A DNA stretch of 64,000 nt, taken from contig JAZDDE010000304.1 of NCBI GenBank assembly GCA_036679495.1, positions 6,674 to 70,673 of the forward strand. The letters run 5' to 3'. The position numbers and the translations under genes were made by a program. Positions 9,036-63,849 of this stretch are shown here, in pieces. This DNA is from Gemmatimonadota bacterium (GTDB lineage: Bacteria > Gemmatimonadota > Gemmatimonadetes > Palauibacterales > Palauibacteraceae). The stretch's first letter is position 1, and each line of letters begins with the position of its first letter. Below the pieces are notes generated by a model. That model was not told where the DNA came from and searched no databases. It worked only from the letters and a program-made list of their open reading frames with translations.

Positions 9036-9900
9036 GTGGGCGGGATGGCAGGTAGGAGCAGAACATCTCGGGTGACCGTGTCGATTCGCGGTCTGGCCCG
9101 CGGACTTCGATTCGGGCTGGGAAACGTCTGGTTCCAGGGTCTCGGTGCGCTGCCGGATATGCTTGCTACACCCAAGTTCTTTATTCTGGCGCAGGGACGC
9201 TCGGGCAGTTCCCTGCTGACGACTCTGCTGGACAGCCACCGGAGGATCAAGTGTGAGGGGGAGGTCTTGTCCATCCCTCTGCGTTTTCCGCGAGCGTTTC
9301 TTCGTGGCAAAGTCCTGCGGTACGGCCTCCGGGGCCAAGGGTGGGGCTTCAAGGCCAAGCACCATCAGATCATTAGGAACCCAGGGGATCGCGGACCTCA
9401 AGGCCTTCTTGAGAGACCTCGAAGCGGCGGGGTGGAAGCTGATCTATCTCCGGCGCAAGAACGTCGTCTACCAGGCTCTCTCGACCCTGGTTGGTGAGAA
9501 GCGGCGCAAGTGGTTGCACAAGGCGAGCGAGGGTCCGCTGGCCAAGGTCAGTATCGATCCTGGCGAGCTGGCTGTGTACATAAAAAGCCGCGAGAACCAG
9601 ACCGCACAAGAGTTTGAGGCCCTGGCGGGTCTGCCGCACCTGGCCCTAACTTATGAAGGTGACCTCGAGGATCCTGGCGTTCATCAACCGACATACGACC
9701 GGATCTTCGACCTGCTCGGACTCACGACGAATCCGGTGTGTTCTGCTCTTGGCAGAACTGGCAGCCGGAACATCGACGACGTGATCGAGAATCCGGTCGA
9801 GGTCAGGGCCGAACTCAAGAGGTTAGGCTACGCTCACTACCTCTTGCTAGGGCTTGCAATCATCGGCCGGCGAGGGCCGAGGGCCTGGCCTCGCTCGTGA
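9036..9900 (+). pseudogene. Stf0-like sulfotransferase, split by an apparent +1 frameshift near 9385 (possible pseudogene or sequencing error)
   Basis: ORF 9036..9497 carries the 5'-PSB motif (PKFFILAQGRSGSSLL). ORF 9253..9900 in the +1 frame carries the 3'-PB region (LIYLRRKNVVYQALS). Sense in both frames is lost around the ccagggg run at 9378-9392. Confidence 0.5.
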
Positions 9901-10843: not shown

Positions 10844-10914
10844 CAACAACTCCTCGAGTGACTGGCGAACCCTATCAAGATGTGGCGCTCCGCTAGCTGC
10901 GGAGTGATCGATAC

Positions 10915-11721
10915 CTATGGCAGCGAACGCTCCCGGAGAATGCGCCACCCGGCGACCTCCTGGGCCAGTGTGAGCTCCTTGGTGACGGAGTCGCTGTAGC
11001 GGTCCGAGCGAAAGGTCTGAGCGAAGCGCACGACGACTTCACTCTCGTGAATCAGATCCAGCTGGATGTCGTCAAGCTCCACCTCTATGAACTCCGGCGC
11101 TTCGAGACGCTGGGTTCGGGTTTCCACCCAGGCCTCGCGCGTGGAGCCATCGCCAGGCTGGAAGAGCCTCGAGTAGCACTCCAGGTAGCTCGCCACGTCC
11201 TGCCTCTGCCAGGCCGTCCGCCAGATCTCGACGAGGGCGAGAACTGGGCTGGCGATTTCTGCCGACTGATTGGAAGCGGCCTCTCGGACCTCGGCCTCTT
11301 GGACCCCGGGCTCAGGGATCTCGGCCTCAGGGACCTCGACCTCCTGGACCCCGGCCTCCGGGACCCGGTCTTCAACTTGCTCCGAGATCTCGTCAACGGG
11401 CGCTGCATCCTCGGCGCTTCTCTCGACGAGTCGAACCAGGTCAGAGGGCGACAGACGGGCGAGAGGAATCTCAAAGCGCACTCGATGACCGGGCTTGACC
11501 TTCGCGGCGTCCTCGATGTCGAGAAGTGTGCGCTGCGCCGTCGACTCTACGACCTCAGCCAGGCCGACCTCCACGATCTTGACTTCGTCGCTGACTTGCA
11601 GGTCGTAGTAGACCGTGCCGGTGTCGCCCGATCGAAGCAGGTCGCCGAGGGGCTCCTCGAGGTACACCTGGCCGCCGCTAAGCGAGATCACCGTAGCGAT
11701 CAAGACGACGGTGGCGTTCAT
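10915..11721 (-). CDS. hypothetical secreted protein with an acidic Pro/Glu/Val tandem repeat and an NTF2/SnoaL-like C-terminal domain
   Basis: N-terminal signal peptide, (VPEAGVQE/VPEAEIPE)n repeats and a C-terminal W..W..D...YL..YS motif block. 4-nt overlap with wcaF. Confidence 0.45.
   Translation of the reverse strand: MNATVVLIATVISLSGGQVYLEEPLGDLLRSGDTGTVYYDLQVSDEVKIVEVGLAEVVESTAQRTLLDIEDAAKVKPGHRVRFEIPLARLSPSDLVRLVERSAEDAAPVDEISEQVEDRVPEAGVQEVEVPEAEIPEPGVQEAEVREAASNQSAEIASPVLALVEIWRTAWQRQDVASYLECYSRLFQPGDGSTREAWVETRTQRLEAPEFIEVELDDIQLDLIHESEVVVRFAQTFRSDRYSDSVTKELTLAQEVAGWRILRERSLP
11281..11375. repeat. imperfect tandem nucleotide repeats of ~24 nt (ctcggcct.. ggacc ccgg gctcagggat) inside the CDS
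   Basis: Read directly. They encode the acidic PE-repeats. Confidence 0.5.
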
Positions 11722-15538: not shown

Positions 15539-16650
15539 TCGGCGCGCCCAAGCACCTGATTGCACAGAGCTCGCCAGCGCTCGACCCCCTTCGCGAGGGT
15601 CCACTCGCCCACCATCGCGCTCGATTCTCGGCTGAAGCGTTGCCGTAGCTCAGCCGAGGAGATCAGTTGGTCGAGCGCGGTGGCGAGCGCCGCGGCATCA
15701 TCGACTGGCACGACCAGGCCGTTGACGCCCTCACGCACCAAGTCATCGGCGGCGGCAACGCCTTGGGTGGTGACGATCGGTAGACCTGCCGCGAGAGCTT
15801 CATTCATCACCACACCCCAGCCGTCGTGGCGGCTAGGGAGAACGAAGAGGTCCGCAGCGGCAAATATGTCCGGCAAGTCATCCGGTTGGCGAAAACCGAG
15901 GAAGGCAATCCTCTCAGTGAGTTCCCGTGGCACCCCCGCCCGGTAACGCTGTAACTCGGGCCCGGCACCGACCAGGGTTAAGCGTGCCTCGCCACGCCGG
16001 TCGGCGATCTTCGAGAAGGCCTGGAGTAACGTATCGACGCCCTTTCTTTCGATCATTTGACCGCTGTAGAGCACCGTGACTCGAGAGCTGTCGGGCTGGC
16101 GCCCAAGAGCGGCCCGGGCAAAAGGTTCCGTGTCGCAATGGTACGGGATGTTGACTACCGGCACATGGCGGTTCAGATGCCGATAGGCGGGTACGGCGCG
16201 GCTACCAATGGCCGCGATGGCGTCGGCCTGGGCCACCGGGCGCTGAAGCCCCCAGCGCACGGCACGCCCGAGAGGCCCACGATGGCTCATGGCCGGCACC
16301 TCGCCCCAGAACACCCATGGACAGCGAGGCCGAAGCCAGCGCATCACGCGCTGCGCTGTCATGGAGGAGTAATCGCTGACCACAACCAGATCGGGAGCAA
16401 AGGCCTCAAGGTCGCGCACCGCTGTCGGGTTCCAGTGCGCCGACGGTCCAAGCCAATGGAGAGTCCGGCCGGGTAGAATTCGTTCGAACGCGGCGAGCTC
16501 GTTCGGCTGCCAATCGCGGTCGGTGGCGTCGGCGGTGTAGTACAACACCACCAGCTCGAACTCCGGGTCCGCCGCCAACGCCCCAAGGAACTGGCGTTGA
16601 TAGGGCGACGGCATAACCGTCAGAAAAGCGAGCCGGGTCGGTCGGATCAC
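15535..16650 (-). CDS. glycosyltransferase, GT4 family
   Basis: LPSRHDGWGVVMNEALAAGLPIV motif and GT-B architecture. Confidence 0.8.
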   Translation of the reverse strand: MIRPTRLAFLTVMPSPYQRQFLGALAADPEFELVVLYYTADATDRDWQPNELAAFERILPGRTLHWLGPSAHWNPTAVRDLEAFAPDLVVVSDYSSMTAQRVMRWLRPRCPWVFWGEVPAMSHRGPLGRAVRWGLQRPVAQADAIAAIGSRAVPAYRHLNRHVPVVNIPYHCDTEPFARAALGRQPDSSRVTVLYSGQMIERKGVDTLLQAFSKIADRRGEARLTLVGAGPELQRYRAGVPRELTERIAFLGFRQPDDLPDIFAAADLFVLPSRHDGWGVVMNEALAAGLPIVTTQGVAAADDLVREGVNGLVVPVDDAAALATALDQLISSAELRQRFSRESSAMVGEWTLAKGVERWRALCNQVLGRAE

Positions 16651-17996
16651 GAGCGTTGTGGGGTGATCGGGCCGCCGGCGCGCCAGGCAGCCATACGCTG
16701 CGAGTACTCCTTCTGCGTCACCACGATAACGGCAAGGAAGACAAAGATCGCCTGGTAGAAGACGGGAAACGTAAACGAACGGCCGATGACGAAGAAGCCG
16801 GCTAGGCCCATGGCGTAGAACGTCATGACAGTGATGTATTGGAAGGCGACCTCCCCGAGTCGGTCCCAGGTTCGACAGATCCAGCCGCCGACCGCGCTCA
16901 CCAACAGAATCCCGGCGATACCGAAGTTCATGTACATCTCGCCGACGATGCCGTAGGCCGCGGTGTATCCGGTACCCACCGAGCCGGGCGCGACGATGGC
17001 CGCGTAAGTGACCCCGAAGCGCGGCGGCTTGCCCTCCCAGAGGAAGCGCGGGAAGGGATTGACCAGCTCCGCGATGTAGCTCTCGCCCCAGACGAAATCG
17101 TACGTATCAGGGAAGTACTTGGTGATGAAGAGCAACTCCCGAAACATCTCGAAGCCGACATACTGGGTCTCGGCGCCCCAGGCCAGGACTCCTTGCTCTC
17201 GGCCGGCGACGACCGCGACGGAGTACTCGTAGAACACGAAGCCTAGCGGCACCATGAGCAAGATCAGTCGGCGCCGGTAATGGAGCGGGAGTCGCCAGAC
17301 GACGGCCATAGCGATGGGGATCAATGTGATGATCAACGAGGAACGGGTGCCCGAGCCATAGGCGCGGAGCAAGGCGTACGTCACCACCAAAGCCGCGAAA
17401 CAGCGTTTCCAGATCGGTTGATCGCGGCGCAGGGCATAGACCGTAGCGAGGCCGGCAAGGCCGATCAGAAACAGTTCGAGCATAAGCATCGCATCGCGCA
17501 CCTGGCCGAACTGCGCCCGCCCGATGCTGCCGCCCCAGGTCCGGCGCATACCCATGAAGCCACGGACTGTAGAGATGAGGTTGAGTCCGCCGTAGTAAAG
17601 CACCGGTGCTAGTCCGATGAACGCCGCCGACACCGTGACCGCCCACAGGTGACGAGGTTGTTCAAGAAGCGATAGCCGGATCGCCATCGAATCGATGCGG
17701 CGATAGGGAGGTAGCTTGTGATAGCCAAGCAGGAAGCAAGAGATCGAGATGCTTAGGAGAAGGATTCCAAAGTCGTACTCGGCTTGCGTGTAGCCAACGG
17801 TCAAAGCCTCGGGGATCATCAGCGCCTCGAGCAGGTACCAACTCAGGTAGCCACCGAGGACAACGTTGCGCGCTCTCACCAGGCGCAGAAGATCGTGGCG
17901 AAGATCGAGAGCCAAAGCCAAACCAACCGCGACAGCGAGCAGTTGGGCGTAGAAGCCGGAGAGTTCGGAGCCAATCAACGTCAGATCGTCCGGCAC
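16647..17996 (-). CDS. oligosaccharide repeat-unit polymerase (Wzy-like) membrane protein
   Basis: 449 aa, ~11 TM helices with a large loop between late helices. Sits between GT genes in an operon that overlaps at gene boundaries. Confidence 0.5.
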   Translation of the reverse strand: MPDDLTLIGSELSGFYAQLLAVAVGLALALDLRHDLLRLVRARNVVLGGYLSWYLLEALMIPEALTVGYTQAEYDFGILLLSISISCFLLGYHKLPPYRRIDSMAIRLSLLEQPRHLWAVTVSAAFIGLAPVLYYGGLNLISTVRGFMGMRRTWGGSIGRAQFGQVRDAMLMLELFLIGLAGLATVYALRRDQPIWKRCFAALVVTYALLRAYGSGTRSSLIITLIPIAMAVVWRLPLHYRRRLILLMVPLGFVFYEYSVAVVAGREQGVLAWGAETQYVGFEMFRELLFITKYFPDTYDFVWGESYIAELVNPFPRFLWEGKPPRFGVTYAAIVAPGSVGTGYTAAYGIVGEMYMNFGIAGILLVSAVGGWICRTWDRLGEVAFQYITVMTFYAMGLAGFFVIGRSFTFPVFYQAIFVFLAVIVVTQKEYSQRMAAWRAGGPITPQRS

Positions 17997-43714: not shown

Positions 43715-44806
43715 CTAGCTCCTGAACAACCGCTTGAATCCTCCCGCTATTCGGGCCGCGTTCGCCTTGAGGCCCACTGGCCTAGCGGCGTGGCTCTTCC
43801 GAATAACCGCGTAGGGAGTCTGTCGGCCGCCGAGTCCGCGGAAGGCGTGCTCGATAGGCTCCATCACGGAGCCTTCAAAGTCGAAACGCGCGGCGACTCC
43901 AGCAGAAAACTTGATGGCCTCCCACATCGCCAGGCTCGAGGCGCCACTGCTTCGCAGGCTGGGCTCTGAACCGCCCATCAGGTAGTAGGCCGTCCCGTTG
44001 TGCCAGACGACGTAGACGGCAGCGTGGACTGTCCCTGAACGATCGCGCGCCGCCACGATCCTGCGGCCTGCATGGACGCGGCAGGCTAGATCGACCCGCT
44101 CGAGTAGGTCGGAGGGGATCGGATTCGCAAGTCCCTGTCGGCTAAAGGTCTTGTCGTTGAGTACCAGAAAAGCGTCGAAGCTGAGGTCCTGGTCGGCGAC
44201 CAGGCCGCTCTTGCGCGCCCGGTTGATGCGCGACCTCGTCGTGCTTCTCATCTCGCTCCAGAGACGCTCCGGGTCCGACAGATCCGGCAGCAGATAGGTG
44301 TATCGGCTGGTCTGATGGAAGCCCCGCCAGTGAAACGGGAGCCAATTGGTGAAGTTTTCATGGAAGCGGTGCCGAAACCCGATGAAAGAAGGGAGTTGAT
44401 CGATCAACTGGCTGATCAGCCGGTGCTCACGGGAGAGCCTCTCGGCGTACTTCGCCCCCGTGTCCGCGAAGAGTATCCCGAGTTTCTGCGTCAAGAGCGG
44501 CATGTCAATCACAAGGCCGCTCGGTCCCTCTTCGAAGACGATGGGCCAAGCAGCGGCGAGCTCGGAGCCACGCCCGACGGTCAGAACGGTGTAGGCGTCC
44601 GGCGCCACGGCGTCCAACCACCAGCGGTGGCAGTAGATGCTGCCCTGCCGGGACTGCCTAACCAGCTCCTCATAGAGGTCCTTGCCCCCTCGGGGCTCGT
44701 CCCTCGCGTGACCGTCGCCAACGTTCAGGGTTTGGAATTCCTTTGGTGTGTGGGTTCGACGAGTGGGGAGGAGACGCCTTCGGCGGACCAGGAATAGTCG
44801 ACGCAT
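43715..44806 (-). CDS. FemAB-like/GNAT-fold acyl- or aminoacyl-transferase (Acetyltransf_6-like)
   Basis: About 360-aa soluble protein whose composition and length resemble the FemAB/BioF2-like GNAT family often found in EPS loci. Start uncertain because candidate starts overlap wzt. Confidence 0.45.
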   Translation of the reverse strand: MRRLFLVRRRRLLPTRRTHTPKEFQTLNVGDGHARDEPRGGKDLYEELVRQSRQGSIYCHRWWLDAVAPDAYTVLTVGRGSELAAAWPIVFEEGPSGLVIDMPLLTQKLGILFADTGAKYAERLSREHRLISQLIDQLPSFIGFRHRFHENFTNWLPFHWRGFHQTSRYTYLLPDLSDPERLWSEMRSTTRSRINRARKSGLVADQDLSFDAFLVLNDKTFSRQGLANPIPSDLLERVDLACRVHAGRRIVAARDRSGTVHAAVYVVWHNGTAYYLMGGSEPSLRSSGASSLAMWEAIKFSAGVAARFDFEGSVMEPIEHAFRGLGGRQTPYAVIRKSHAARPVGLKANAARIAGGFKRLFRS

Positions 44807-46029
44807 ACTCCGCCTCTTGGGTCCGTTGCCGACCTGCCGCTGCCGTAGTAGTCGCCGGCGTGGACTTCTATCAACGCTGCACCGGAGATCTTGTCGGCTA
44901 AGCCTCCGTTTGCCTTGCACTTGAGACTCAAACGATAGGAGCCCGGGTACAAGGGGAAGCGCGGGAAGGTACAAACTACTCGGGTGTTGTTCGAACCGAC
45001 GTCGAGCCGAGCATCAACGACATCGCTCCGGCACTTGAAGAGGAAATGATCTCTCATGTTGAGGAAGGCCAGCGAGACCCAGAAGCCCGACACCTGGGGA
45101 CGAGGCGTCTCGAGCGTCACGACGACCTGAGTCTGTTGGCCGGTTCTCGCCGCAGGTATCTGCTCGCCGGCAGAGTTGCGCAGCTCGATGGACGCAAACC
45201 TGACGTCCCCTGAGCCATAGCGGTCGGTCCGACTTCTTAGGTCGGGGTTATGAGCCGCCGAGCTTTGTCGCACGTAGATGTCGAGCGCTCGCGCAGTCTC
45301 GGTGTCGGCAACTACTTGGCCTTGTTTCAGTACCAGAGTCCGCTGACACAGCGCCTCGACGGCGGCGAGGTTGTGGCTCACGAAGAGGATCGTCGCCCCG
45401 GACGAGGCCACATCTGCCATCTTGCTCAGGCACTTCTGCCGAAAGGAGGCGTCCCCCACGGCCAGCACCTCGTCAATGATGAGAACTTCGGGGTTGAGAT
45501 GGGCCGCAACTGCGAAGCCCAGCCGCACTCCCATTCCGCTCGAATAGCGCTTGACGGGGGTATCGAGAAAGCGCTCGACCTCCGAGAAGGCGACGATCTC
45601 GTCGAACTTGGCGTCAATCTCGCGCTTGCTCATCCCCAGGATCGCGCCGTTGAGATAGATGTTCTCTCTGCCCGTGAGCTCGGCATGAAAGCCAGTCCCA
45701 ACCTCGAGCAGGCACCCAACTCGACCCACGATCTCGGCCTGACCCTCGGTCGGCTCGGTGATTCGCGACAGAACCTTGAGCAGAGTGCTCTTGCCGGCAC
45801 CGTTGCCTCCGATGATGCCCAGAGCTTCTCCTTGAGCCACCTCGAATGAGATGTCGCGAATGGCCCAAATCTCTCGCGTGTCGGGAGTCTCGATGGGGTC
45901 CGGATCCCGTCTGCCCAAGGACTTCCGGGCCAGTCGAGAGATGCTCTCGCGAAGGGTCCGGTAGCCGACGGTCTCTCCGAGGCGGTACTTCTTGCCGAGG
46001 GCATCTACTCGGAGGGCGTAGCGACTCAT
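44725..46029 (-). CDS. wzt: ABC transporter ATP-binding protein Wzt/KpsT-like with a C-terminal glycan-binding extension
   Basis: Walker A GGNGAGKST, signature YSSGMGVRLGFA, Walker B LIIDEVLAVGD and H-loop SHN. A ~180-aa C-terminal extension is typical of Wzt. Confidence 0.85.
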   Translation of the reverse strand: MSRYALRVDALGKKYRLGETVGYRTLRESISRLARKSLGRRDPDPIETPDTREIWAIRDISFEVAQGEALGIIGGNGAGKSTLLKVLSRITEPTEGQAEIVGRVGCLLEVGTGFHAELTGRENIYLNGAILGMSKREIDAKFDEIVAFSEVERFLDTPVKRYSSGMGVRLGFAVAAHLNPEVLIIDEVLAVGDASFRQKCLSKMADVASSGATILFVSHNLAAVEALCQRTLVLKQGQVVADTETARALDIYVRQSSAAHNPDLRSRTDRYGSGDVRFASIELRNSAGEQIPAARTGQQTQVVVTLETPRPQVSGFWVSLAFLNMRDHFLFKCRSDVVDARLDVGSNNTRVVCTFPRFPLYPGSYRLSLKCKANGGLADKISGAALIEVHAGDYYGSGRSATDPRGGVCVDYSWSAEGVSSPLVEPTHQRNSKP

Positions 46030-47971: not shown

Positions 47972-49174
47972 ATGATCAACCAGTACTATTGGCCGGACGT
48001 AGCGGCCACGGCACAACTACTTAGCGACCTCGGCGAGGATCTGGCGTCTGCCGGCCACTACGTGTGTGCGTTGGCTGGTCGGGGTAGCTACGCCGGTACC
48101 GGTAAGAAGCGGGCGCCGCGAGAAGAGCACTGCGGAGTTGAAGTAGTTCGTGTGTGGTGTTCCAGTCTTGGCAGGCATTCGCGACTCGGGCGGATAGCCG
48201 ACTATGCGAGTTTCTTTGCGAGCGCGGCCTGGAGGGTGTGGCGGCGACCCGCTCCAGACGTTGTCATTTGCCTGTCGACGCCGCCGCTGGTCGCTCTTCT
48301 CGGTCTGCTCTGCAAGCGCCGCGGAAGCCGTTTCATCTACAAGGTCGAGGACCTCTATCCCGAGGTCGCCGTCGCCTTGGGCGTCCTTCGGGAGGGCGCG
48401 CTCTCGACCCGGATCCTGCGCTGGATCTCTAGGCGGGCGCTAGCTGGCGCCGACGCAGTGGTCGTCCTCGACAACGGCATGGAGGAGGCGGTGGTGAAGG
48501 CTGGCGCCGAGCGCGTGTGGGTCGTACCGAATTGGTCTGATGGCTCGGCCATTAGGCCGCAGTCGGCCTCGAAGAGTGGTTTTCGGAGCGACCACGATCT
48601 GGATCGCTCGTTCATCATTCTCTACTCGGGCAACATGGGCCTAGCCCACCGGTTCGACGCCGTGTCGCAAGCGGCCCGGAGCTTGGAAGGAACCCATCCG
48701 GACGTCCGATTTCTGTTCGTCGGCCGTGGCCCCCAGCGCGCCCGCCTGCAGGCGGACACGCGCGGCCTTGGAAACGTCCTGTTCTTCGACTATAGGCCGC
48801 GTGAGATGCTGAACGATCTCTACGCCGCAGCTGACGTACATCTGGTCACTCTGCGCGACGAGGTGGCTGGTCTTCTGTGGCCGTCCAAGTATCCGGCGGC
48901 GTTGGCCTCGGGGAGACCGGTGCTGCTGGTCGGCGGCGAGAACAGCACGATCTGGCGGGAGATTCTCCAGCGTGGCGTAGGTTGGTGCTGTGCTCATGAC
49001 CCGGCCGACCTAACCGATGCCGTTCTGGCGGCGAAGGCCGAGCTGGCGACCAGCGACGAACGCCGATCCCGGGCTCGTGAGCTCTTCGATCAGCGGTACT
49101 CTCGGGAACTCACGTCGCAGCGCTGGGTCGAGTTGGTCGAGAATCTGGCGGCGCCCCAAAGTCGCCGGCACTAG
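47972..49174 (+). CDS. glycosyltransferase, GT4 family (WcaI/WbuB-like)
   Basis: MINQYYWPD N-terminus is typical of the WcaI-like subgroup. GGAG SD 5 nt before the ATG at 47972. C-terminal GT-B motif. Confidence 0.75.
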   Translation: MINQYYWPDVAATAQLLSDLGEDLASAGHYVCALAGRGSYAGTGKKRAPREEHCGVEVVRVWCSSLGRHSRLGRIADYASFFASAAWRVWRRPAPDVVICLSTPPLVALLGLLCKRRGSRFIYKVEDLYPEVAVALGVLREGALSTRILRWISRRALAGADAVVVLDNGMEEAVVKAGAERVWVVPNWSDGSAIRPQSASKSGFRSDHDLDRSFIILYSGNMGLAHRFDAVSQAARSLEGTHPDVRFLFVGRGPQRARLQADTRGLGNVLFFDYRPREMLNDLYAAADVHLVTLRDEVAGLLWPSKYPAALASGRPVLLVGGENSTIWREILQRGVGWCCAHDPADLTDAVLAAKAELATSDERRSRARELFDQRYSRELTSQRWVELVENLAAPQSRRH

Positions 49175-50475
49175 AAAAACCACTCGCCGACGACGACGGT
49201 GTCGCCGTTCTCTAGCAGCACGTCATCGTCGGCCCCCTTGCGAACCCGTTTCAAGTTGACAGGAATGCGCAGCTGTGATCCGTCCGGCATTCGTCGGATG
49301 ACGGTGACTTTACGCAGGTTGGCTCGTTCTGTAGCGCCTCCGGCGGCAGTGATCGCCTGAAAGACGGTGAATGCCTCGGAGCTTGAGAAGTCGACTGTAC
49401 CGGTGGTCCTCACCGCGCCCGAGATGAAGACGCGATAGACCTGGGGTGGCGGCACGATCACGATGTCGCCTGGTCGCAGGGCCAGATTGAGAGACAGGTC
49501 GCCTTGCTCCACGAGGCGTAAAGCGTCGATCTGGATGCGCTCCTCGGTGCCTGCTCGGTTGCGCAGGATGATGATCGAGGTGCCCGAGCGAGCCCCGGTC
49601 ACGAGTCCGCCGGCTTCGCCGATCATATCGAGCAGGGTCTTGGATCCGACCATCTGGTAGGCGCCGGGCCTGTTGACCGCGCCTTGAATCGAGATGCCGC
49701 GGCTCTGGAACTCCTTCACCAGGATCGAGACCTGAGGGTCGTTGACGAGTTTGCGCTGGGCCAACAGGTTCGCGATGGCTCGCTCGGCCTTCCGCAAACC
49801 CAAGCCGGCCACTCGCATGCCACCGACGAGAGGCAGGGTGATCGATCCATCGCGCAGGACGCGCGTCTCCCGAGTCAGCTCGGGAAGCCCGAAGACCTCC
49901 ACTTGGAGCACGTCACCGGTGCCGATTAGGTACTGACCGGAGTCTGGGTCGGGCGTAGCGATTGACGGACCGGGTGCGATCGCCGGAGCTGCTTCGGGCG
50001 GTGCCGGGGCTGCCAGCGGTGTCGCAGGGCCTCCGCTCGAGGAGCGGATGCGAACGAAGAGCCAGTCCTCGCTCGCGGCGACGGAGTACGAGCTCCTCGA
50101 GCGCGTGCGAATATGGACGCTTGTGGCGGGCGCGGCGGCGCTGTTGTCGAGGAGCACTTCGACCGAGGCCACATGGCCTTCTGCGGCCACTAGGTTGGTC
50201 ACGACCGGACTCGGGGCTGTGTCCTCGAGCGAGATGGTGATCAGGCCGTCAGCACGGCTATTGGCGAGCCAACGGCCGCGGCTGCTCATCGCTAGCGCGA
50301 GGACGGCGCTGCTGGGCTCGTTGGTCAAGGTCATGGACTCCAGGACCACGGCCGCGGGAGCCTGTGCCGAAGCCGGCGAGATACCGAGGGCGGTGAGGGC
50401 CATGGCGGCGAGCAATAGAGAGAAGCGCCGGAAAGCGGGTCCAGTGGATCTAGACGTTGAAGAGATTCGGTTCAT
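49171..50475 (-). CDS. wza: polysaccharide export outer-membrane protein (Wza/GumB-like: Poly_export + SLBB) with a ~150-aa N-terminal extension
   Basis: Signal peptide, PxxP/Ala-rich extension, then the Poly_export motif (YLIGTGDVLQVEVFG) and two SLBB-like segments. Confidence 0.8.
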   Translation of the reverse strand: MNRISSTSRSTGPAFRRFSLLLAAMALTALGISPASAQAPAAVVLESMTLTNEPSSAVLALAMSSRGRWLANSRADGLITISLEDTAPSPVVTNLVAAEGHVASVEVLLDNSAAAPATSVHIRTRSRSSYSVAASEDWLFVRIRSSSGGPATPLAAPAPPEAAPAIAPGPSIATPDPDSGQYLIGTGDVLQVEVFGLPELTRETRVLRDGSITLPLVGGMRVAGLGLRKAERAIANLLAQRKLVNDPQVSILVKEFQSRGISIQGAVNRPGAYQMVGSKTLLDMIGEAGGLVTGARSGTSIIILRNRAGTEERIQIDALRLVEQGDLSLNLALRPGDIVIVPPPQVYRVFISGAVRTTGTVDFSSSEAFTVFQAITAAGGATERANLRKVTVIRRMPDGSQLRIPVNLKRVRKGADDDVLLENGDTVVVGEWFF

Positions 50476-51886: not shown

Positions 51887-52726
51887 TCAGGCGTCTCCCT
51901 CGATCTCTTGAACATCGATGACTTCCACGTCGATCACCTGCCGGGGACCGCCGCTCGAATCGTCCAGAGCCTGCTCACGCTGCTTGAGGCTCTCGATGAA
52001 GCCGCTATCGTCGTCTACTGAAACCGCTTTCTCGAACGGTATCTCCTGCGGCCCGTGAGCCGGCGAGGTGGGGATCGAAGCCGATCTCCGGCCGGTGAAG
52101 AAGATGGCCAAACTGCCGGCTAGCGCAATGCCGAGGGCGAGCAACAACTGCATGAGGCCTCGATGCCCGCTATCGTCGCTGCTCTCTAGTTGAGCGGCGG
52201 GCGAAGGTTCTTCAACGGCCACCAGTTCTTGCTCCGTGTCGAGGGTTCCTTGGCTGTCGGGCACTGGCGGCGGGAGCCCGGGACCGGCCTCACCTAGGTT
52301 CGTAGAGTCCTCTACGAACGTATCGGCGGTTTCCGTCTCGGTGATCGGTTCGACATCGGTTTCGACGAGGGGCGGCGCGGGCGGGACCTCCTTCTCGGAG
52401 GCCGCGACGGGCTCCGGCGAGGTCAACGGTACGACCGAGTCGAGTTGCTCGAGATAGCCGTGGTAGACGGCCGGCTCCTCGGTGACGACGAGCCGCTGGC
52501 TCTGGCTGCGATAGCCGGTCTTCTTCATTTCGAGCACATACTCGCCGATAGGTATGCCCTCAACCAACATCGTTCCCTTCGCATCGGTGTGGCCGAGGGA
52601 TGTGCCGTCCCACACCACCTCGACTCCGGGTTGAGACTCGATGCTCACACGTCCGGTGGCGGCTGCTAGAGAGGCGGCCATGGCGAACGAGACGATCAAG
52701 ACTAGCGGCCGGGCCGCACAACGCAC
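51887..52726 (-). CDS. PEGA-domain membrane-anchored protein
   Basis: Signal peptide, PEGA domain (GRVSIESQPGVEVVWDG...GEYVLEMKKTGY), acidic linker, one TM and a cytoplasmic tail. The GTG start shares 1 nt with the wzc stop. Confidence 0.55.
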   Translation of the reverse strand: MRCAARPLVLIVSFAMAASLAAATGRVSIESQPGVEVVWDGTSLGHTDAKGTMLVEGIPIGEYVLEMKKTGYRSQSQRLVVTEEPAVYHGYLEQLDSVVPLTSPEPVAASEKEVPPAPPLVETDVEPITETETADTFVEDSTNLGEAGPGLPPPVPDSQGTLDTEQELVAVEEPSPAAQLESSDDSGHRGLMQLLLALGIALAGSLAIFFTGRRSASIPTSPAHGPQEIPFEKAVSVDDDSGFIESLKQREQALDDSSGGPRQVIDVEVIDVQEIEGDA

Positions 52727-55116
52727 TAGGCTGTCCTCTTCGCGGTGAGCTCTCCGTCCGAGCCGTGATAAGTGCTGTAGTAGCCGCCGTAGTAGCTGTA
52801 GTTCTCCGAGTGGATGTCGACCGAGTTGAGGGCTACTCCGAGAAGCGGCGCTCGAGCTCGAAGCAGTTGATCGCGCGCGCGGATGAGGGCGTGGCGCGGT
52901 GTCTTGCCCGCTCGGGCGACGAGGATGACGCCGTCGACGATGAGGGAGAGCAGAACCGCGTCGCTAAGCTCCAGGCAAGGAGGCGAGTCGATCACGACGT
53001 GGGTGAAGTCACGGGCCAGGGTCAGTCCGGCACGCATGCGTTCGGAGCCGAGCAGCTCAGGCGGGTTGGGTGAGTGGGGGCCGGCGGCGACGGCGTAGAG
53101 ATTGGCAACACCGGTCGGCTGGATGAGCGTCGAGAGGCTTGCGTGACCTGTGAGATAGGTACTCATTCCCTCGATGGCCTTGAGCCCGAGGGCCTTGCCG
53201 AGCTTCGGTCGCCGCAGGTCGAGGTCGAGTAGCAGGGTTCGTCCGCCCGTTTGAGCGAGAGCGACCGCCAGATTGAGCGCGGTGGTCGATTTGCCCTCTC
53301 CGGGGATCGCCGAAGTGATGAGCAGAGCCTGCGGCTCCTTGGCGGGCGACGAGAGCATGATCGAAGTGCGAAGCGATCGGTAGGCCTCCCAGGCCTGAGC
53401 ACTGTGGGCCTCGTCTTCGCGCCCGTAGAGAAGCACGGGGCCATCGGGCGCCGGCGTTTCGGCTTTGCGTCGCAGGAGCCTCTGGAGCAGAGAGAGTTTG
53501 GTCCTGCCGAAGAGCGCTGGGATGATTCCGAGCGAAGGCAGATGGATGAAGTGATCGATGTCGTCAGGCGTCTTGACCGTATTGTCGAGGTTCTCGGCCA
53601 ACACCACGGAGGCGAGCCCGAGGAGGAGCCCGAGCAACAAAGCGCGAATCAAGCTCTGGGTCTTCTTGGGCGAACTCGCAACGCTCGGCGTGATCGCGCG
53701 GTCGGCTACCTGGATGTTGCTCGGTTCGAGCCCGGCTGCGACTGTAGCCTCTTTGAGCCGCTGCAAGAGTCCCTGATAGAGAGCCTTGTTGCTCTCCACT
53801 TCCCGTTTGAGAATGTTGTATTCGATCGAGTCGTCGTCGAGCAGATCGACGACCTGCTGTTGGTCAGTCATTGTTGAGGCAATCCGGTTGTGACGATTGC
53901 GCGCCAACTGATAGTTCTGTTCCGCAGAAGAGATCGCTTCGCGGCGCGCGGTTTCGAGCTGCGCCCGCAGGTCGTTGCTCTGGGAGCGCAATTGCTTGAC
54001 TGCCGGCCATTCCGGACCGTAGCGGCTGGAGTAGCCGGCGAGCTCCCCCTCGAGCTCGGACAGCCGTCCCTCGAGCGAGCGGATACGCTCGTCCTTGAAG
54101 GACTCGGGCAATGAGCGTCCGGGGGCATTGCGCACCGCCTCGTAGCGCGCCTGGGCCGCCACCATCTCGTTAAAGAGTCTGGTCTTCTCGTCCGAGAGGT
54201 CCGCAAAGCGCTTCCGGTTGACGGTCTCATTGCCGGAGACGGCTATTATGTTCTTGCGCTGTGCGTAGTCGAGAAGGCTAGCCTCGGAAGACTCGACCTT
54301 GCTCTTGAGTTCGGCCAACTGACCTTCCAAGAAGCGGGTGGCGCGAATCGTCGCGTCGTAGCGGTTCTGCAGATGAAGCAGGATGAACTCATCGGCTATG
54401 GTGTTGGCCACTTGCGACGCCAGTGCGGGGGACTGGGAAACGTAGCCCACTTCGATCAGGCGAGTCCGGCGCAGCGGGCTGATGCGTATGTTGCTGATCA
54501 GCTTGCCCTCGAGGGCCTGGAGCCGGCGATCGCTTAGTACCTGGGGAGGTCTAGCCTCATCCGATGTGTCGGTCTCCGCCGTTACGGTCGTCTGCTGGAT
54601 CGGTGGGCCCGGCGATCCGACTAATGCCGTCCCGGCGGCCCGAGCCAAACGGCGGATGCTGCCGCTCAGCTCCTTGAACGCGCCCGCGCTGGGCCGGGCA
54701 TTGAAGTCACGGTTGTTGGCCAGGTCGAGGCGCTCGATCACGCGCGCCGCCAGGTCGCGCGACTTGAGCTTCTCCGCCTGAGTCCAAATGAACTGCTCGG
54801 AGGCCCCTCCTCGGCCGGGCCCGGCAATGTCCTGGTAAGGAAGAATGTCGGCTTCGCCCGGATTGATCTGAACCCGCGATGCTGCCGTGTACTTCGGCGT
54901 CGTCGTGAAAACTTGGAGTGCAGAAAGAGCCAGGACGGTCAGGGTCACTGCTACCGGAAGCCACTTGCGGCGCCGGAGGATGTACAGATAATCCTTGAGC
55001 GAGGTCTGGCGCGGTGGCGGCAGGGCTCCGGCCGTGGGCTGGTAGAGTTGGGGCAGTGTCTGGCCGACGTAGTGCTGCGGCAGGCCGCTTGGAGGGTTGT
55101 CTGGTGGCTCGATCAT
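52726..55116 (-). CDS. wzc: polysaccharide co-polymerase/tyrosine autokinase (Wzc-like, PCP-2a)
   Basis: N-terminal Wzz domain with 2 TM, long coiled coil, Walker A SAIPGEGKSTTALNLA and a C-terminal Tyr cluster YSYYGGYYSTY. Confidence 0.85.
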   Translation of the reverse strand: MIEPPDNPPSGLPQHYVGQTLPQLYQPTAGALPPPRQTSLKDYLYILRRRKWLPVAVTLTVLALSALQVFTTTPKYTAASRVQINPGEADILPYQDIAGPGRGGASEQFIWTQAEKLKSRDLAARVIERLDLANNRDFNARPSAGAFKELSGSIRRLARAAGTALVGSPGPPIQQTTVTAETDTSDEARPPQVLSDRRLQALEGKLISNIRISPLRRTRLIEVGYVSQSPALASQVANTIADEFILLHLQNRYDATIRATRFLEGQLAELKSKVESSEASLLDYAQRKNIIAVSGNETVNRKRFADLSDEKTRLFNEMVAAQARYEAVRNAPGRSLPESFKDERIRSLEGRLSELEGELAGYSSRYGPEWPAVKQLRSQSNDLRAQLETARREAISSAEQNYQLARNRHNRIASTMTDQQQVVDLLDDDSIEYNILKREVESNKALYQGLLQRLKEATVAAGLEPSNIQVADRAITPSVASSPKKTQSLIRALLLGLLLGLASVVLAENLDNTVKTPDDIDHFIHLPSLGIIPALFGRTKLSLLQRLLRRKAETPAPDGPVLLYGREDEAHSAQAWEAYRSLRTSIMLSSPAKEPQALLITSAIPGEGKSTTALNLAVALAQTGGRTLLLDLDLRRPKLGKALGLKAIEGMSTYLTGHASLSTLIQPTGVANLYAVAAGPHSPNPPELLGSERMRAGLTLARDFTHVVIDSPPCLELSDAVLLSLIVDGVILVARAGKTPRHALIRARDQLLRARAPLLGVALNSVDIHSENYSYYGGYYSTYHGSDGELTAKRTA

Positions 55117-55315: not shown

Positions 55316-56467
55316 ATGACTGACGCCGCCGCAAACCTAGCATTCTCCGCCCTTGTCGCGGGTTCGATCGCCTGTCTGGTGACCACCTTGATGGTGCCGT
55401 TGAGTCTGCGGCTCGCTCGGACCCTAGGCGCGATTGACGAGCCGGGAGGGAGACGGCTGCAGGCCGTGCCCACTCCGCGACTCGGCGGTATCGCGATCTT
55501 GGCTGGTATTGCGCTAGCCGTCCCCGCCGTCTTGATCTTTCGCTGGAGTCAGCAGCTCGCCGGGTTGCCGCCGTCTCAGATCACCGCGGTGTTGATCGGA
55601 ATCGCTATCATCTTTCTTCTGGGGCTGGCCGACGATCTCTTCGGCATGACGCCGGTGGTCAAGTTGGTGGTGCAATTCACCGCCGCGGCAGTGGTTGTTC
55701 AAGCCGGCCTGAGTTTCGAAACGCTCAGCCTGCCCTTCGTCGGTACGCTGGAGCTTGGGGTTCTCGGAGGGGTCGCTTCCTGCGTCTGGATCGTCGGGGT
55801 GACCAACGCGATCAATCTCATCGACGGCCTCGACGGGCTGGCGAGCGGCGTCGTTGCGATCATCGCGCTCAGCTTCTCGATCTACGCTTTCGTGCAAGGC
55901 AACTCGATGACGGTGTTGTTGATGGCCGCCGCGGCCGGCTCGTGCGTCGGCTTCCTGCGTCAGAACTGGCATCCGGCGAAGGTATTCATGGGCGACTCCG
56001 GGGCTCTGACTCTAGGCTTTATGCTGGCGGCGGTCAGCGTTCACTCGTCGCTCAAGACGCCGGCGGCGGTCGCTATCCTGGTGCCGCTCCTGGCACTGGG
56101 CGTGCCGATCATGGACGCCTTCCTGGTGATGCTGGGCCGGTTTCTAAACGGTCCGCAGAGCGGGCCGGTCAGACGGGCGCTGAGGATGTTCCACGCCGAT
56201 CGCAACCATCTCCATCATCTGATGGAGGTATTCCACCTGACCCGTCCCCGGGTCGTCCTCGGGATTTACGCTTTGGTGCTGGCGTTCTGTGCTTTCAGCC
56301 TGACCGTAGCTCTGAGCAAGAGCGCGTCCATCGGCCTCTCCTTGATCGTCGTTGAGTTCCTAGTTATCGTTGCGGTGCGGCACTGGGGGCTGAAGCGGGT
56401 GGATATGACCTCCGAAGACGCTCCGGCGGTGGCCGACAACGTCCGCCCGATCCGTCGAGCCGGCTGA
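55316..56467 (+). CDS. polyprenyl-phosphate HexNAc-1-phosphate transferase (WecA/TagO/MraY family), the initiating enzyme
   Basis: 11 TM helices, VTNAINLIDGLDGLASG and FMGDSGA motifs. Confidence 0.85.
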   Translation: MTDAAANLAFSALVAGSIACLVTTLMVPLSLRLARTLGAIDEPGGRRLQAVPTPRLGGIAILAGIALAVPAVLIFRWSQQLAGLPPSQITAVLIGIAIIFLLGLADDLFGMTPVVKLVVQFTAAAVVVQAGLSFETLSLPFVGTLELGVLGGVASCVWIVGVTNAINLIDGLDGLASGVVAIIALSFSIYAFVQGNSMTVLLMAAAAGSCVGFLRQNWHPAKVFMGDSGALTLGFMLAAVSVHSSLKTPAAVAILVPLLALGVPIMDAFLVMLGRFLNGPQSGPVRRALRMFHADRNHLHHLMEVFHLTRPRVVLGIYALVLAFCAFSLTVALSKSASIGLSLIVVEFLVIVAVRHWGLKRVDMTSEDAPAVADNVRPIRRAG

Positions 56468-56507: not shown

Positions 56508-57494
56508 CTAACTGGAGAGAGAACGCACACACCGAAAGCCAACTTCGGCGCTCGACGACGACGGCTCCATGAACCGCCGACGATGGGGGTCGAGCACTCC
56601 ATACTTGCCGCCCAGGCCGCCCCGTAGCACTCGATGGGTTTCACCGTACTGAGCCTCGGGTCGGGTGTTGCCTGGGTAGGGCGCGTACCAGGATGCAGTC
56701 CACTCCAGTTGCCCCGGTGGCGCGGTCACCTTCTCCTGTTGGATCGCCACTTCCCACTCGAATTCGGTCGGGAGGCGGGCGCCGCGCCACCCGCAGTACG
56801 CCTTGGCCGCATTGTAGGAGACCAGGCCGGCGGCACTGGTGCCCGGCTTCGAGAAGTCGTAGACGGGTTCGAAGGCTTGGAATTCGGCGTTGCTGACCGG
56901 CCGGCTGTCGATCTCGAGATCGCTCAGGTTGAAGTCGAAAGGAGGCTGCTGGTTGTAGTAGCGAGCCGCGCGAGCGGACAACCCGATTCGATAGGAGCCC
57001 GCGGAGATGAGTGCTGTCGAAACGGACTCGCGTGCCGTGCGTACGGCTAATTCGGCTGCTTCGGCCTGCCTCTCGAGTCTCTGCTCCTCGAGCCAGGCGA
57101 GGACGACTTCTTGAGTCTCGGGATCCTTCGGCATCACTCGCTGGAGGGCCTCCGAGTCGAGTGTTGTGCCCTCTAGGGACGCCTGCTCGCGTGCGAACGC
57201 CAGAATGGCGGGCGGTGAGACCCGCTCATTTGATACCTCGAACTCGACGACGAATCCCTGCCGGAAGATCTTTTCGGGATCGGTTGCGATGAGGGAGCTG
57301 TCAGCCTCGACCGACGTGATACTCGTCCCAGCCACGCTGACTCGGCGCTTCGTCCCACCGACGTTGAGCTCGTAGTAGACCTCGCCGAGGTCGCCAACTC
57401 GCAGTCCGTCGGCGAAGCCCTTGTCGATCCGAGCCGAGTTGGTACCGGCAGTGGCTACCAGGGCGAGGACGGTGAGGAGCGTGGCTGGGGTCAT
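56508..57494 (-). CDS. secreted FGE-sulfatase (SUMF1/EgtB/PvdO) domain protein
   Basis: Signal peptide. C-terminal RLPTEFEWEVA...GFRCV is the hallmark of the FGE-sulfatase domain. 4-nt overlap with the TPR gene. Confidence 0.7.
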   Translation of the reverse strand: MTPATLLTVLALVATAGTNSARIDKGFADGLRVGDLGEVYYELNVGGTKRRVSVAGTSITSVEADSSLIATDPEKIFRQGFVVEFEVSNERVSPPAILAFAREQASLEGTTLDSEALQRVMPKDPETQEVVLAWLEEQRLERQAEAAELAVRTARESVSTALISAGSYRIGLSARAARYYNQQPPFDFNLSDLEIDSRPVSNAEFQAFEPVYDFSKPGTSAAGLVSYNAAKAYCGWRGARLPTEFEWEVAIQQEKVTAPPGQLEWTASWYAPYPGNTRPEAQYGETHRVLRGGLGGKYGVLDPHRRRFMEPSSSSAEVGFRCVRSLSS

Positions 57495-60925: not shown

Positions 60926-63304
60926 ATGCGTTTGCTTTTCGCGACGACGACGGCTGTACTCGTCTGTTCGGCCGGTTTCTGGGGTGGTGCTGCGCACGCT
61001 CAAGCGCCCTCGACCGACATCTTCATCCTGCCGGTAGAGGGCTCCGTCGTGGGGACTCCGAGTCGGGCGACCGACCGTGAGGGCTACGACAATCAGCCGC
61101 AGTTCTTGGCCGACGGCAGCGGCGTGGTCTACAGCTCAATCGGTGACGACGGGGCGACGGACATTCATCTCTATGATCTGGTATCCGGCGAGAGCGACGT
61201 GTTGGTCTCGACCCCGCAGAGCGAGTACTCGCCGACCCCAATTCCAGGCCGCGAGGCGATTTCGGTGGTGCGCGACTACGGCGATCTCGTACAGCAACTG
61301 TGGGCCTTCCCGCTCGACGGGGGCGAGCCTGAGTTGCTTCTGCCCGACGTCAATCCGGTCGGTTACCACGCCTGGGCCGACGCTGAGCAGTTGATCCTCT
61401 TCGTGCTGGGCGAGCCGATGACACTACAGTCGGCCCGCGTCGGGCCCGGCGCTGGGGAGGTGCTGGCCGACTCCCCAGGCCGTGCGTTGGCGCGCGTTCC
61501 CGGCTCGCATGAGATGAGCTACGTCGATAAGTCGGACGATGACGCCTGGTGGGTTACCGCTGTAGATCTGGCCAGCGGCGAGCAGCGCCGTTTGATGCCG
61601 ACTCTCGAAGGCCGTGAGGACTGCGCCTGGGCGCCCGACGGCGCGCTGTGGATGGGTGACGACAGCCGGCTCTACCGCTGGCCGGCCGGCGGCACCGCTT
61701 GGGAGCTGGCGGCCGATCTCGATGCGGCCGGCATCTACGGCATCACTCGGCTCGCCTTCTCTCCCGATGGGACGCAGTTGGCGGTCGTCGGTCGGCGGCC
61801 ACCGGCCGATCTGGCCCAGGCCTACAGCCGTCCGGCCGGGGAGATCCTGGGAGCCGCGCTCACCGACACCGAGGGCTGGGAGAAGCTGAGCTACCTGGCG
61901 ACAGCGATCGGGCATCGCCTCAGCGGTTCCGACGGCCTCGAACAGGCGATCGACTGGGCGGTCGAGCGCATGACAGCCGAGGGACTCACGGTGCGCAAGC
62001 AGTCGGTGATGGTGCCGCACTGGGTGCGCGGCACAGAGAGCGCTAGGGTCGTGGCGCCGGTCGCGCGCGAGCTGCCGATTCTCGGTCTCGGCAACAGCGT
62101 CGGCACTCCGCCCGGCGGAATTACCGCGCCGGTGGTTGTGGTCCGAAGCTTCGAGGAGCTCGAAGCCTTGGGCCGTGAGCGGGTCGAGGGCAAGATCGTC
62201 CTCTACGCCGTCGAGTGGGACGGCTACGGCTACACCGTACAGTTTCGCGGTAAAGGACCCTCGCGCGCGGCCGCCCTGGGAGCGGTTGCGGCCTTGACCC
62301 GCTCGGTGACGGGCCAGAGTCTCGCGACGCCCCATACCGGTGCGCTGGGCTACGACGAGGAGCAGCCGAAGATCCCGGCGGCGGCGGTGACGGTCGAGGA
62401 CGCCGCCTGGATGCGGCGCATGTCCGAACTCGGTCGCGAGGTCACCGTGCATCTCGAGATGGAAGCGCGGATGCTGCCCGACGCGGAGTCGTTCAACGTG
62501 ATCGCCGAGATCGCGGGCAGTGAGCGCCCGGAAGAAGTGGTCGTGATGGGCGGGCACTACGACTCGTGGGACGTGGGGCAGGGCGTTCATGACGATGGCG
62601 CGGCCTGTATCGCTGCCTGGCAAGCGCTGCGGTTGATCGATCGACTAGGCCTGGTGCCGCGGAGGACTCTGCGCGTGGTTCTGTGGACCAACGAAGAGAA
62701 TGGTTTGCGCGGCGGCCGGGCCTACCATGAAGAGCTCTCCGCCGAACAGGTCGCCAACCACGTGGCGGCGATCGAGATGGACGGCGGGGTCGAGCGACCG
62801 GTGGGCTTCGGCTTCGGCCTGGTCGGCGTCGATCCGGCGGCCGAGGAACCGGACGCGAGGTACGAAGCGGCCTACTCCAAGCTCGAACAGATCGGACAGC
62901 TGTTGGCCGGAATCGACGCCTCGGAGCTGAATCGCGGTGGTGGCGGCGCCGACATCGGTCCGCTGATGCGGGCGGGTGTGCCGGGCCTCGGCCTGCGGAC
63001 GGTCGGCGAGCACTACTTCGACTGGCATCACACTCACGCCGACACTCTGGACAAAGTCGACGTACAGAACTTCCGGCGCGCGATCGCTCTGCTCGGAGTG
63101 ACGGGGTTCGTTCTGGCCGACATGCCGGAACGCGGGGTTCGTTCTGGCCGACATGCCGGAACGCTTGGTGCAGCCGGAACGCTCAGCGCAGCGGGAACCG
63201 ACCGAGTGACCGGCAAATTCGAGACCCGCGACGCGCTCGAAGCCACGCAGCCACTCGAGGCGCTGGCCCGACGTCTCGCCGCGACCGAGGAAGGGTCCCA
63301 GTGA
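60926..63304 (+). CDS. secreted TolB-like beta-propeller plus PA-domain plus M28 zinc aminopeptidase. The 3' end is frame-shifted by a 31-bp tandem duplication.
   Basis: GGAGGAGG SD and a signal peptide. Repeated DG..VY/..SPDG propeller motifs. M28 signature GGHYDSWDVGQGVHDDGAA. Without the duplication the ORF would end ...ADMPERLVQPERSAQREPTE*. Confidence 0.7.
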   Translation: MRLLFATTTAVLVCSAGFWGGAAHAQAPSTDIFILPVEGSVVGTPSRATDREGYDNQPQFLADGSGVVYSSIGDDGATDIHLYDLVSGESDVLVSTPQSEYSPTPIPGREAISVVRDYGDLVQQLWAFPLDGGEPELLLPDVNPVGYHAWADAEQLILFVLGEPMTLQSARVGPGAGEVLADSPGRALARVPGSHEMSYVDKSDDDAWWVTAVDLASGEQRRLMPTLEGREDCAWAPDGALWMGDDSRLYRWPAGGTAWELAADLDAAGIYGITRLAFSPDGTQLAVVGRRPPADLAQAYSRPAGEILGAALTDTEGWEKLSYLATAIGHRLSGSDGLEQAIDWAVERMTAEGLTVRKQSVMVPHWVRGTESARVVAPVARELPILGLGNSVGTPPGGITAPVVVVRSFEELEALGRERVEGKIVLYAVEWDGYGYTVQFRGKGPSRAAALGAVAALTRSVTGQSLATPHTGALGYDEEQPKIPAAAVTVEDAAWMRRMSELGREVTVHLEMEARMLPDAESFNVIAEIAGSERPEEVVVMGGHYDSWDVGQGVHDDGAACIAAWQALRLIDRLGLVPRRTLRVVLWTNEENGLRGGRAYHEELSAEQVANHVAAIEMDGGVERPVGFGFGLVGVDPAAEEPDARYEAAYSKLEQIGQLLAGIDASELNRGGGGADIGPLMRAGVPGLGLRTVGEHYFDWHHTHADTLDKVDVQNFRRAIALLGVTGFVLADMPERGVRSGRHAGTLGAAGTLSAAGTDRVTGKFETRDALEATQPLEALARRLAATEEGSQ
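63103..63164. repeat. perfect direct tandem duplication of 31 bp (ggggttcgttctggccgacatgccggaacgc x2)
   Basis: Read directly. 63103-63133 equals 63134-63164. Confidence 0.9.
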
Positions 63305-63849
63305 GTTGGATCGATACGGTGGCCCCCGACGACGCCGAGGCCGAACTCGCGGAGCTCTACCGGCAGGTGCTCGATCCGACGAGCGGGCAACTCGACAACA
63401 TCATGCGCATCCACAGCCTCCACCCGCGGGGCCTGGCGGCTCACCAGGAGGTCTACAGCGCGGTGATGCGGCCGACGCCGAGCCTGCGCCGCGCCGAACG
63501 CGAGATGATCGCGTTGGTCGTCAGCCAGATCAACGAGTGCCACTACTGAATCACTCACCACCGGCGCGGTCTGCGCCGAGCGCTCAAGGATGATGAGCTA
63601 CTGGCCGCGATCGAGGAGGACTACCACGCTGCGGGCCTCGAACCTCGGCGCCTGGCGATGCTGACTTACATCGACAAGCTCACCCGCACGCCGAGCAGGA
63701 TGTCGCGCAGTGACGTCACCGCTCTGCGCGAGGTCGGTTTCGACGACAAGGACGTGCTGCAGATCGTCGAGGTGGCGGCCTACTACGCCTACGCCAATCG
63801 CATCGCCGATGGTCTCGGCGTGGCTCTCGAGGAGCCGGAGTCCTCTTAG
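63301..63849 (+). CDS. CMD/AhpD-like peroxidase-related enzyme with in-frame TGA (candidate selenocysteine) at 63547-63549
   Basis: ORFs 63301..63549 and 63658..63849 are in the same frame. The TGA falls exactly at the second Cys of the conserved C-x-x-C (INECHY-U-ITHH). Read-through gives a full-length, collinear ~182-aa family member. Confidence 0.6.
63562..63578 (+). other. SECIS-like hairpin (cggcgc-GGUCU-gcgccg) 12 nt downstream of the TGA, with G and U at positions 23/24 from the U of UGA
   Basis: Read directly. The position and the GGUC loop match the fdhF-type bacterial SECIS. Confidence 0.5.

Follow-up and report, generated by a model that had tools for sequence, protein, structure and literature searches.

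The window analysed here is a stretch of 64,000 nucleotides from a Gemmatimonadota bacterium (assembly GCA_036679495.1, contig JAZDDE010000304.1, positions 6,674 to 70,673 of the forward strand). Positions 63301–63849 of this window are a single gene, with a one-gene architecture, for a thiol/selenol oxidoreductase of the CMD fold, and its frame contains an internal TGA at 63547. Comparison with related sequences indicates that this TGA is very probably a genuine selenocysteine (Sec) codon, served by a functional selenocysteine insertion sequence (SECIS), in an AhpD-like redox enzyme. The features of the gene, all on the + strand, are the following:

63301–63849, +: complete coding sequence of the probable AhpD-like selenoprotein (TIGR01926, 'peroxidase-related'), 182 residues, from open reading frames, translation and profile matches.
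63547–63549, +: UGA probably read as Sec, residue 83 of C80-H-Y-U83, conserved in orthologues and aligned with Cys.
63562–63578, +: predicted bacterial SECIS hairpin, which also encodes R88-R89-G90-L91-R92-R93, from fold, covariation, codon constraint and match to fdhF.
63502–63561, +: active-site segment with Glu68 (63502–63504), Cys80 (63538–63540), Tyr82, Sec83 and His87 (63559–63561).
63287–63295, +: possible Shine-Dalgarno sequence, the purine-rich GAGGAAGGG, 5 nucleotides 5′ of the GTG, inferred from reading the sequence.

The list of open reading frames (ORFs) of the window contains two ORFs in the same frame, 63301–63549 (82 amino acids, GTG start) and 63658–63849. Translation of 63301–63849 yields one internal stop (...VVSQINECHY(stop)ITHHRRGLRRALKDD...) before the terminal TAG at 63847–63849, and the context of this stop reads INECHY(stop)ITHHRRGLRR. 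The same coordinates had been given, for both ORFs and for the TGA at 63547–63549, by an earlier reading of the DNA made without database searches (hereafter the sequence-only reading), and translation confirms them all. The GTG start overlaps the TGA of the upstream ORF, and orthologues begin with MAWI or MSWI at the same position as the 63301 start. A window-wide scan for other pairs of coding-like ORFs split by a TGA returned only the 63547 site, besides ordinary gene boundaries. TGA is the stop of 13 of the 23 window genes that could be confidently assigned to a family; being the normal stop of these genes, it indicates that the genetic code is standard and not reassigned.

With the stop replaced by Cys, the read-through product matches the NCBIfam model TIGR01926 ('peroxidase-related enzyme') above the threshold (141.9 bits; cutoff 81.8), query residues 2–175 aligning with profile positions 1–174 of 178, which bears out the proposal of the sequence-only reading that read-through restores such an enzyme. 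The product also matches the Pfam domain CMD (PF02627, E = 6.9e-15). It stays below the cutoffs of TIGR00777, the model of true AhpD (18.8 bits vs 191.95), and of NF041238, the AhpD-related CFYUT (seleno)protein (56.5 bits vs 175), and the latter match is confined to the C-terminal domain of the 357-position model. In an alignment of 26 sequences, E68, C80, Y82 and H87 do not vary at all, and the stop falls in the column of the second Cys. The TGA had indeed been assigned to the second Cys of a C-x-x-C motif, and the Cys of Cys-containing homologues and of solved structures falls exactly in the TGA column.

To collect orthologues, the GTDB representative genome of each species was scanned, and the best 80 loci were compared. 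In all 80, a TGA directly follows C-x-[Y/F] at the homologous codon. These genomes span at least eight phyla, with representatives of the Actinomycetota (Acidimicrobiia), Acidobacteriota, Planctomycetota, Chloroflexota, Marinimicrobia, Gemmatimonadota, Bacillota (Acidaminobacter) and others. The tblastn matches run across the TGA, covering residues 1–177 or more, and the half of the protein downstream of the TGA is 63–73% identical to the orthologues. Among all unique sequences (n = 153), 131 are TGA forms (hereafter Sec forms) and 22 are TGC or TGT forms (hereafter Cys forms); even when a Cys-form protein served as the query in a metagenome scan, the matches were mainly TGA forms.

The predicted SECIS hairpin starts 12 nucleotides after the UGA and consists of a 6-bp stem (CGGCGC/GCGCCG) closed by the apical loop GGUCU at 63568–63572. 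Counting from the U of UGA, nucleotides 16–21 pair continuously with nucleotides 27–32 in a 40-nucleotide fold, in which G17 is paired with C31, and the loop occupies nucleotides 22–26, with G23 and U24 inside it. The hairpin at 63562–63578, its 12-nucleotide distance from the UGA and the position of the loop G and U at nucleotides 23 and 24 had all been noted from the sequence alone, and a recount gives the same values. The consensus of bacterial SECIS elements is a stem-loop about 11–13 nucleotides 3′ of the UGA with an apical G (and U) about 20–25 nucleotides from the UGA, and both the start and the loop of the window hairpin fall within these general limits.

In two of the six base pairs, nt18:nt30 and nt21:nt27, both partners are third codon positions, and these pairs therefore offer a clean test for selection on the RNA. 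The covariation set comprised 59 orthologues in the hairpin register of the window, 58 of them distinct after removal of one duplicate. At nt18:nt30 these 58 sequences present GC (36), AU (6), GU (6) and CG (5), five being unpaired; at nt21:nt27 they present CG (53), UG (4) and UA (1). The covariation score is 0.147, compared with 0.084 for shuffled data (none of 500 shuffles reaches the observed value), and it collapses when the partners are slid by 1–3 nucleotides. Within the 51 sequences that share the peptide U..HHRRGLRR, nt18:nt30 is paired in 92%, a value reached by none of 5000 permutations.

Codon usage in the loop points in the same direction. Of the 51 orthologues, 48 (94%) use GGT for the loop Gly, as against 15% of the other Gly codons of the same genes (Fisher p = 2e-31), and 50 (98%) use CTG for the Leu after it, as against 34% elsewhere. 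The five Cys forms with HHRRGL[R/Q]R use GGC, GGA, GGG and GGT for this Gly, and all six pairs are intact in two of these five same-peptide Cys forms vs 46 of the 51 Sec forms (p = 0.017). In the wider set, GGTCT stands at nucleotides 22–26 in 93 of 131 TGA forms vs 2 of 22 Cys forms (p = 4e-8), and distant Sec forms with other peptides at this place (G-E-G-L, A-A-G-L) have the hairpin rebuilt around GGUCU. These comparative data indicate that the hairpin at 63562–63578 is under selection at the RNA level.

Sec forms from at least eight phyla encode Gly-Leu as GGU-CUN at nucleotides 22–27, with self-complementary codons on both sides (R-R...R-R, G-E...L-R), and Cys forms drift freely at the loop peptide (G-A-E-L, S-A-V-L and others). 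It is conceivable, although we consider it somewhat less than probable, that the SECIS RNA and not the function of the enzyme dictates the peptide just after the active site in the AhpD-like family. If this were true, the presence of GGUCU at the fdhF distance would imply a nearly universal module for recognition by the elongation factor SelB inside the coding sequence, and the AhpD-like family would be a clean natural system for the study of a protein constraint imposed by RNA.

A few loci of the family differ from this general picture. The best full-length database match (63% identical), encoded at 501–1049 of contig JAJRYI010000263.1 (GCA_024275815.1), has TTA (Leu) at the TGA site. It is the sole close orthologue without the TGA, yet its SECIS hairpin is intact (CGUCGC-GGUCU-GCGACG) and carries a further compensatory variant, U18:A30; the TTA is either a one-base error of sequencing or assembly or a very recent, inactivating change from TGA to TTA. 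Five Sec orthologues from Chloroflexota/Anaerolineae (loci L065, L072, L075, L077 and L082) have ...HHARNLRQLT... as their peptide and no GGUCU hairpin; they form another hairpin of 7 bp, CUUCGUC-AGUU-GACGAAG, situated further 3′, at nucleotides ~24–41 after the TGA, which suggests a replacement of the SECIS within the family. In one Acidimicrobiia locus (L076), a second C-x-[Y/F]-[C/U]...H motif is found at ~3835–3879, about 590 nucleotides 3′ of the first, and may belong to a tandem paralogue.

Several results weigh against the assignment of a Sec codon and a SECIS. The 40-nucleotide fold is unremarkable in itself, with a minimum free energy of -12.2 kcal/mol (z = -0.73) that 36 of 200 shuffled sequences equal or better, and in a 71-nucleotide fold (z = +0.36) the hairpin is present only in the centroid structure. 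As a single sequence, the hairpin lies within chance, and its significance therefore rests on the comparison with other sequences. No SECIS or other credible Rfam family was recovered, either in the whole window at gathering thresholds or in 63480–63680 at permissive E-values. In the E. coli fdhF SECIS, a bulged U17 below the upper helix is a determinant of SelB binding; the window hairpin has no equivalent of it, G17 being paired. The Cys forms that share the peptide and serve as the control are few (n = 5). Finally, neither selA, selB nor selD was detected in the 64-kb window by an NCBIfam scan of about 56 ORFs, and ARAGORN found no tRNA gene there, hence no tRNA-Sec. A tRNA-Sec was not found near 60 related loci either (ARAGORN, flanks of mostly ±3 kb), where one tRNA-Leu and one tRNA-Lys were the only tRNA genes. 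Selenoproteins or the Sec-decoding trait have been reported in some Acidobacteria (PMC1794560).

Judged from the window alone, a stop codon interrupts a conserved gene, and the hairpin after it has an energy that is usual for the G+C content, as would be the case for a pseudogene in which a nonsense change from TGC or TGT to TGA had hit an ordinary Cys-containing AhpD-like gene next to an incidental hairpin. The sequence-only reading had argued against a pseudogene, and the comparison with orthologues supports it: the same TGA stands in all 80 species genomes, across many phyla, similarity is continuous across the codon into the well-conserved downstream half, the window copy has no other disruptions, and the hairpin shows covariation at synonymous sites together with codon constraint, so that a pseudogene appears close to impossible. 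Database content might instead favour two small genes, encoding an N-terminal protein of 82 amino acids and a C-terminal one of ~63–100 amino acids, with the TGA as a true stop, since hundreds of 'peroxidase-related enzyme' entries of ~100 amino acids start just after the TGA and gene callers list the 82-amino acid upstream ORF. About 96 of the 120 best database matches are such C-terminal fragments, beginning at the codon after the TGA ([M/V]THHRRGL...), several of them entered in NCBI nr or JGI as 'peroxidase-related enzyme', and on their contigs an ORF of 82–92 amino acids ends exactly at the fragment start. These entries are a systematic mis-annotation in metagenome-assembled genomes, produced by gene callers that restart after the Sec UGA. 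The TGA of the window is followed by ATC, not by a start codon, and the first in-frame start lies 36 codons further on, at 63658, where initiation would remove His87 and the conserved HHRRGLRR segment; the corresponding codon of the orthologues is often a non-start (ATC, ATA, ACT, CTG, CTC), and both the CMD domain and the catalytic relay straddle the TGA. A pair of independent genes is thus extremely improbable.

Read-through could also occur without selenium, if UGA were reassigned to Trp or Gly (codes 4 and 25) or suppressed by a tRNA-Trp or tRNA-Cys, with the hairpin as a generic stimulator. Such a mechanism would be compatible with the Sec machinery not being seen in the 64-kb window and with the W present at the site in some orthologue translations (P0002–P0005). 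We nevertheless regard it as very unlikely: the Trp of the database protein P0002 is merely TGA translated under another code, TGA terminates the 13 well-supported window genes mentioned above, the site is that of a redox Cys for which the alternative in the family is Cys and never Trp, the sequence and spacing of the loop are those of a SelB-binding SECIS, and the literature lists this family among the selenoproteins. The hairpin itself could be a mere by-product of encoding R-R-G-L-R-R in a G+C-rich genome, without any RNA function, since CGN CGN GGN CUN CGN CGN is self-complementary, four of the six pairs are set by the first and second positions of Arg codons, and HHRRGLRR is also found in some Cys-form homologues (P0006–P0010). 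The two pairs formed by third positions only are, however, maintained through compensatory changes, the loop codons depart strongly from their background, the same-peptide Cys forms vary the Gly codon and break the stem in three of five cases, and Sec forms with G-E-G-L or A-A-G-L still form the GGUCU hairpin. There is accordingly very little chance that coding alone explains the hairpin.

The best-supported mechanism is the standard Sec insertion of bacteria: SelB would bring Sec-tRNA(Sec) to the UGA at 63547, and SelB would presumably be recruited and tethered by the mRNA hairpin at 63562–63578 presenting GGUCU. The product would be a C-H-Y-U oxidoreductase in which a selenolate takes the place of the thiolate equivalent to Cys133 of AhpD; mechanistic work on AhpD of Mycobacterium tuberculosis has reportedly identified Cys133 as the nucleophile. 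Within a Glu68/Cys80/Tyr82/Sec83/His87 relay, the selenolate would probably attack and Cys80 would resolve, and the enzyme may reduce a peroxiredoxin partner or a peroxide or disulfide substrate. The gene would imply selenium use by the host organism, and selABCD are hence predicted. For annotation, its value lies in the recording of one 182-residue selenoprotein instead of a pseudogene or two fragments.

The greater part of the window (~9800–56500, both strands) is occupied by an exopolysaccharide biosynthesis and export cluster with no apparent link to the selenoprotein. It includes many GT4 and GT2 glycosyltransferases and the following genes:

9860–10948: GDP-fucose synthase.
16647–17996: O-antigen-type polymerase.
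44725–46029: Wzt-like ABC ATPase.
49171–50475: polysaccharide export protein.
52726–55116: Wzc-like tyrosine autokinase.
55316–56467: WecA-like initiating transferase.

Other window genes are serS, pdxA and a TonB-domain gene; the SerS protein has its closest named relatives in metagenome-assembled genomes of Acidobacteriota/Thermoanaerobaculia. Of the SenA (selenoneine synthase) and EgtB models, the ORF 56508–57494 (- strand) resembles the C-terminal, FGE-sulfatase-like part alone, with a score well short of the cutoffs (86.9 bits vs 420); it is probably a generic protein with a formylglycine-generating-enzyme (FGE) domain and not evidence of selenium metabolism. A perfect 31-nucleotide tandem duplication (63102–63164, 2.0 copies, 100% identical) lies near the 3′ end of the 792-amino acid ORF 60926–63304 (+ strand). 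The repeat length of 31 is not divisible by 3, so that the second copy changes the reading frame. With a single copy, the ORF would continue as ...ADMPERLVQPERSAQREPTE and terminate near 63207–63209; with two, it extends to 63304 and overlaps the GTG start of the selenoprotein gene. This duplication is either a recent real event or an assembly artefact.

Solved structures with a Cys-form CMD domain were available for comparison with the read-through product. Five structures of the TIGR01926 type, 3c1l (Mlr4105), 2pfx, 2oyo, 6k40 (AhpD) and 2prr, match query residues 18–173 with E = 1.6e-27 to 5.8e-18, and PA0269 of Pseudomonas aeruginosa (2o4d/2ijc) matches residues 61–174 with E of ~1e-8. In all of them C-x-Y-C is aligned to the C-H-Y-[TGA] of the window; they have Cys where the window gene has UGA, and none is a selenoprotein. 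The proton relay of PA0269 consists of Glu36/Cys48/Tyr50/Cys51/His55 and that of M. tuberculosis AhpD of Glu118/Cys130/His132/Cys133/His137 (PMC3141380). The spacing of E68/C80/Y82/U83/H87 is identical to that of PA0269 with an offset of 32 (2ijc alignment), and the same spacing is found in M. tuberculosis AhpD with an offset of 50 (TIGR00777), together with the CMD fold and a CxxC redox centre. Differences from M. tuberculosis AhpD are the score below the TIGR00777 cutoff, Tyr82 in place of His132 and the gene context, as there is no ahpC neighbour in the 64-kb window and neither ahpC nor another peroxiredoxin gene lies beside the selenoprotein gene. The window protein should be seen as one that would work like AhpD, and not as an AhpD orthologue.

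The element most directly comparable to the hairpin is the SECIS of E. coli fdhF, whose sequence was confirmed by a search of 5,426 E. coli genomes, in which it is 100% identical inside the annotated selenocysteine-containing fdhF. GGUCUGC occupies nucleotides 22–28 in both the window and fdhF, and in both cases the hairpin follows the UGA directly on its 3′ side and is itself part of the coding sequence. The stem of the window hairpin has another sequence and is short (6 bp, perhaps 7 bp) and G+C-rich, and the long lower helix that reaches back to the UGA in fdhF is absent from it. The description of the hairpin as 'fdhF-type' by the sequence-only reading therefore stands for the sequence and spacing of the loop, but not for the bulged U17. 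Since this bulge is missing, the window hairpin would work like an fdhF-type SECIS without sharing every feature of fdhF, and is not a strict fdhF element. Distant orthologues of the GGGGAG...CUCC type may have a 2-nucleotide bulge at nucleotides 16–17, as judged by eye.

The closest known system is the 'AhpD-like protein' family itself (COG2128, CxxU), which Zhang, Fomenko and Gladyshev added to the selenoprotein families in 2005 on the basis of data from the Sargasso Sea, with 27 sequences and predicted SECIS elements (PMC1088965). In the Global Ocean Sampling (GOS) survey, 'AhpD-like 1' ranked fourth in abundance among the prokaryotic selenoprotein families, with 299 sequences (PMC2398784). 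AhpD-like selenoproteins have also been reported in sequenced genomes, e.g., that of Alkaliphilus metalliredigenes (PMC1794560), the family is listed as 'AhpD-like protein, TIGR01926, CxxU' in the table of a 2026 review (PMC13188914), and it can be browsed in BSepDB (PMC13326102). The statement of the sequence-only reading that Sec-containing AhpD-like proteins had already been reported is therefore correct (PMC1088965, PMC2398784, PMC13188914). The window gene shares with this family the same profile, a single Sec at the second residue of CxxC, a bacterial SECIS immediately downstream and a presumed redox function, and there is no difference in kind; the window copy adjoins the exopolysaccharide cluster and a peptidase gene, with no selenoprotein operon partner visible. 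Papers of 2005–2008 had already described the family together with its CxxU motif and SECIS, so that the finding is an ordinary one and raises no new biological question. The window gene is a further member of the published family, with no departure from its architecture; what appears mildly new is the strength with which the SECIS shapes the downstream peptide and the uniform position of GGUCU, at nucleotides 22–26, across phyla.

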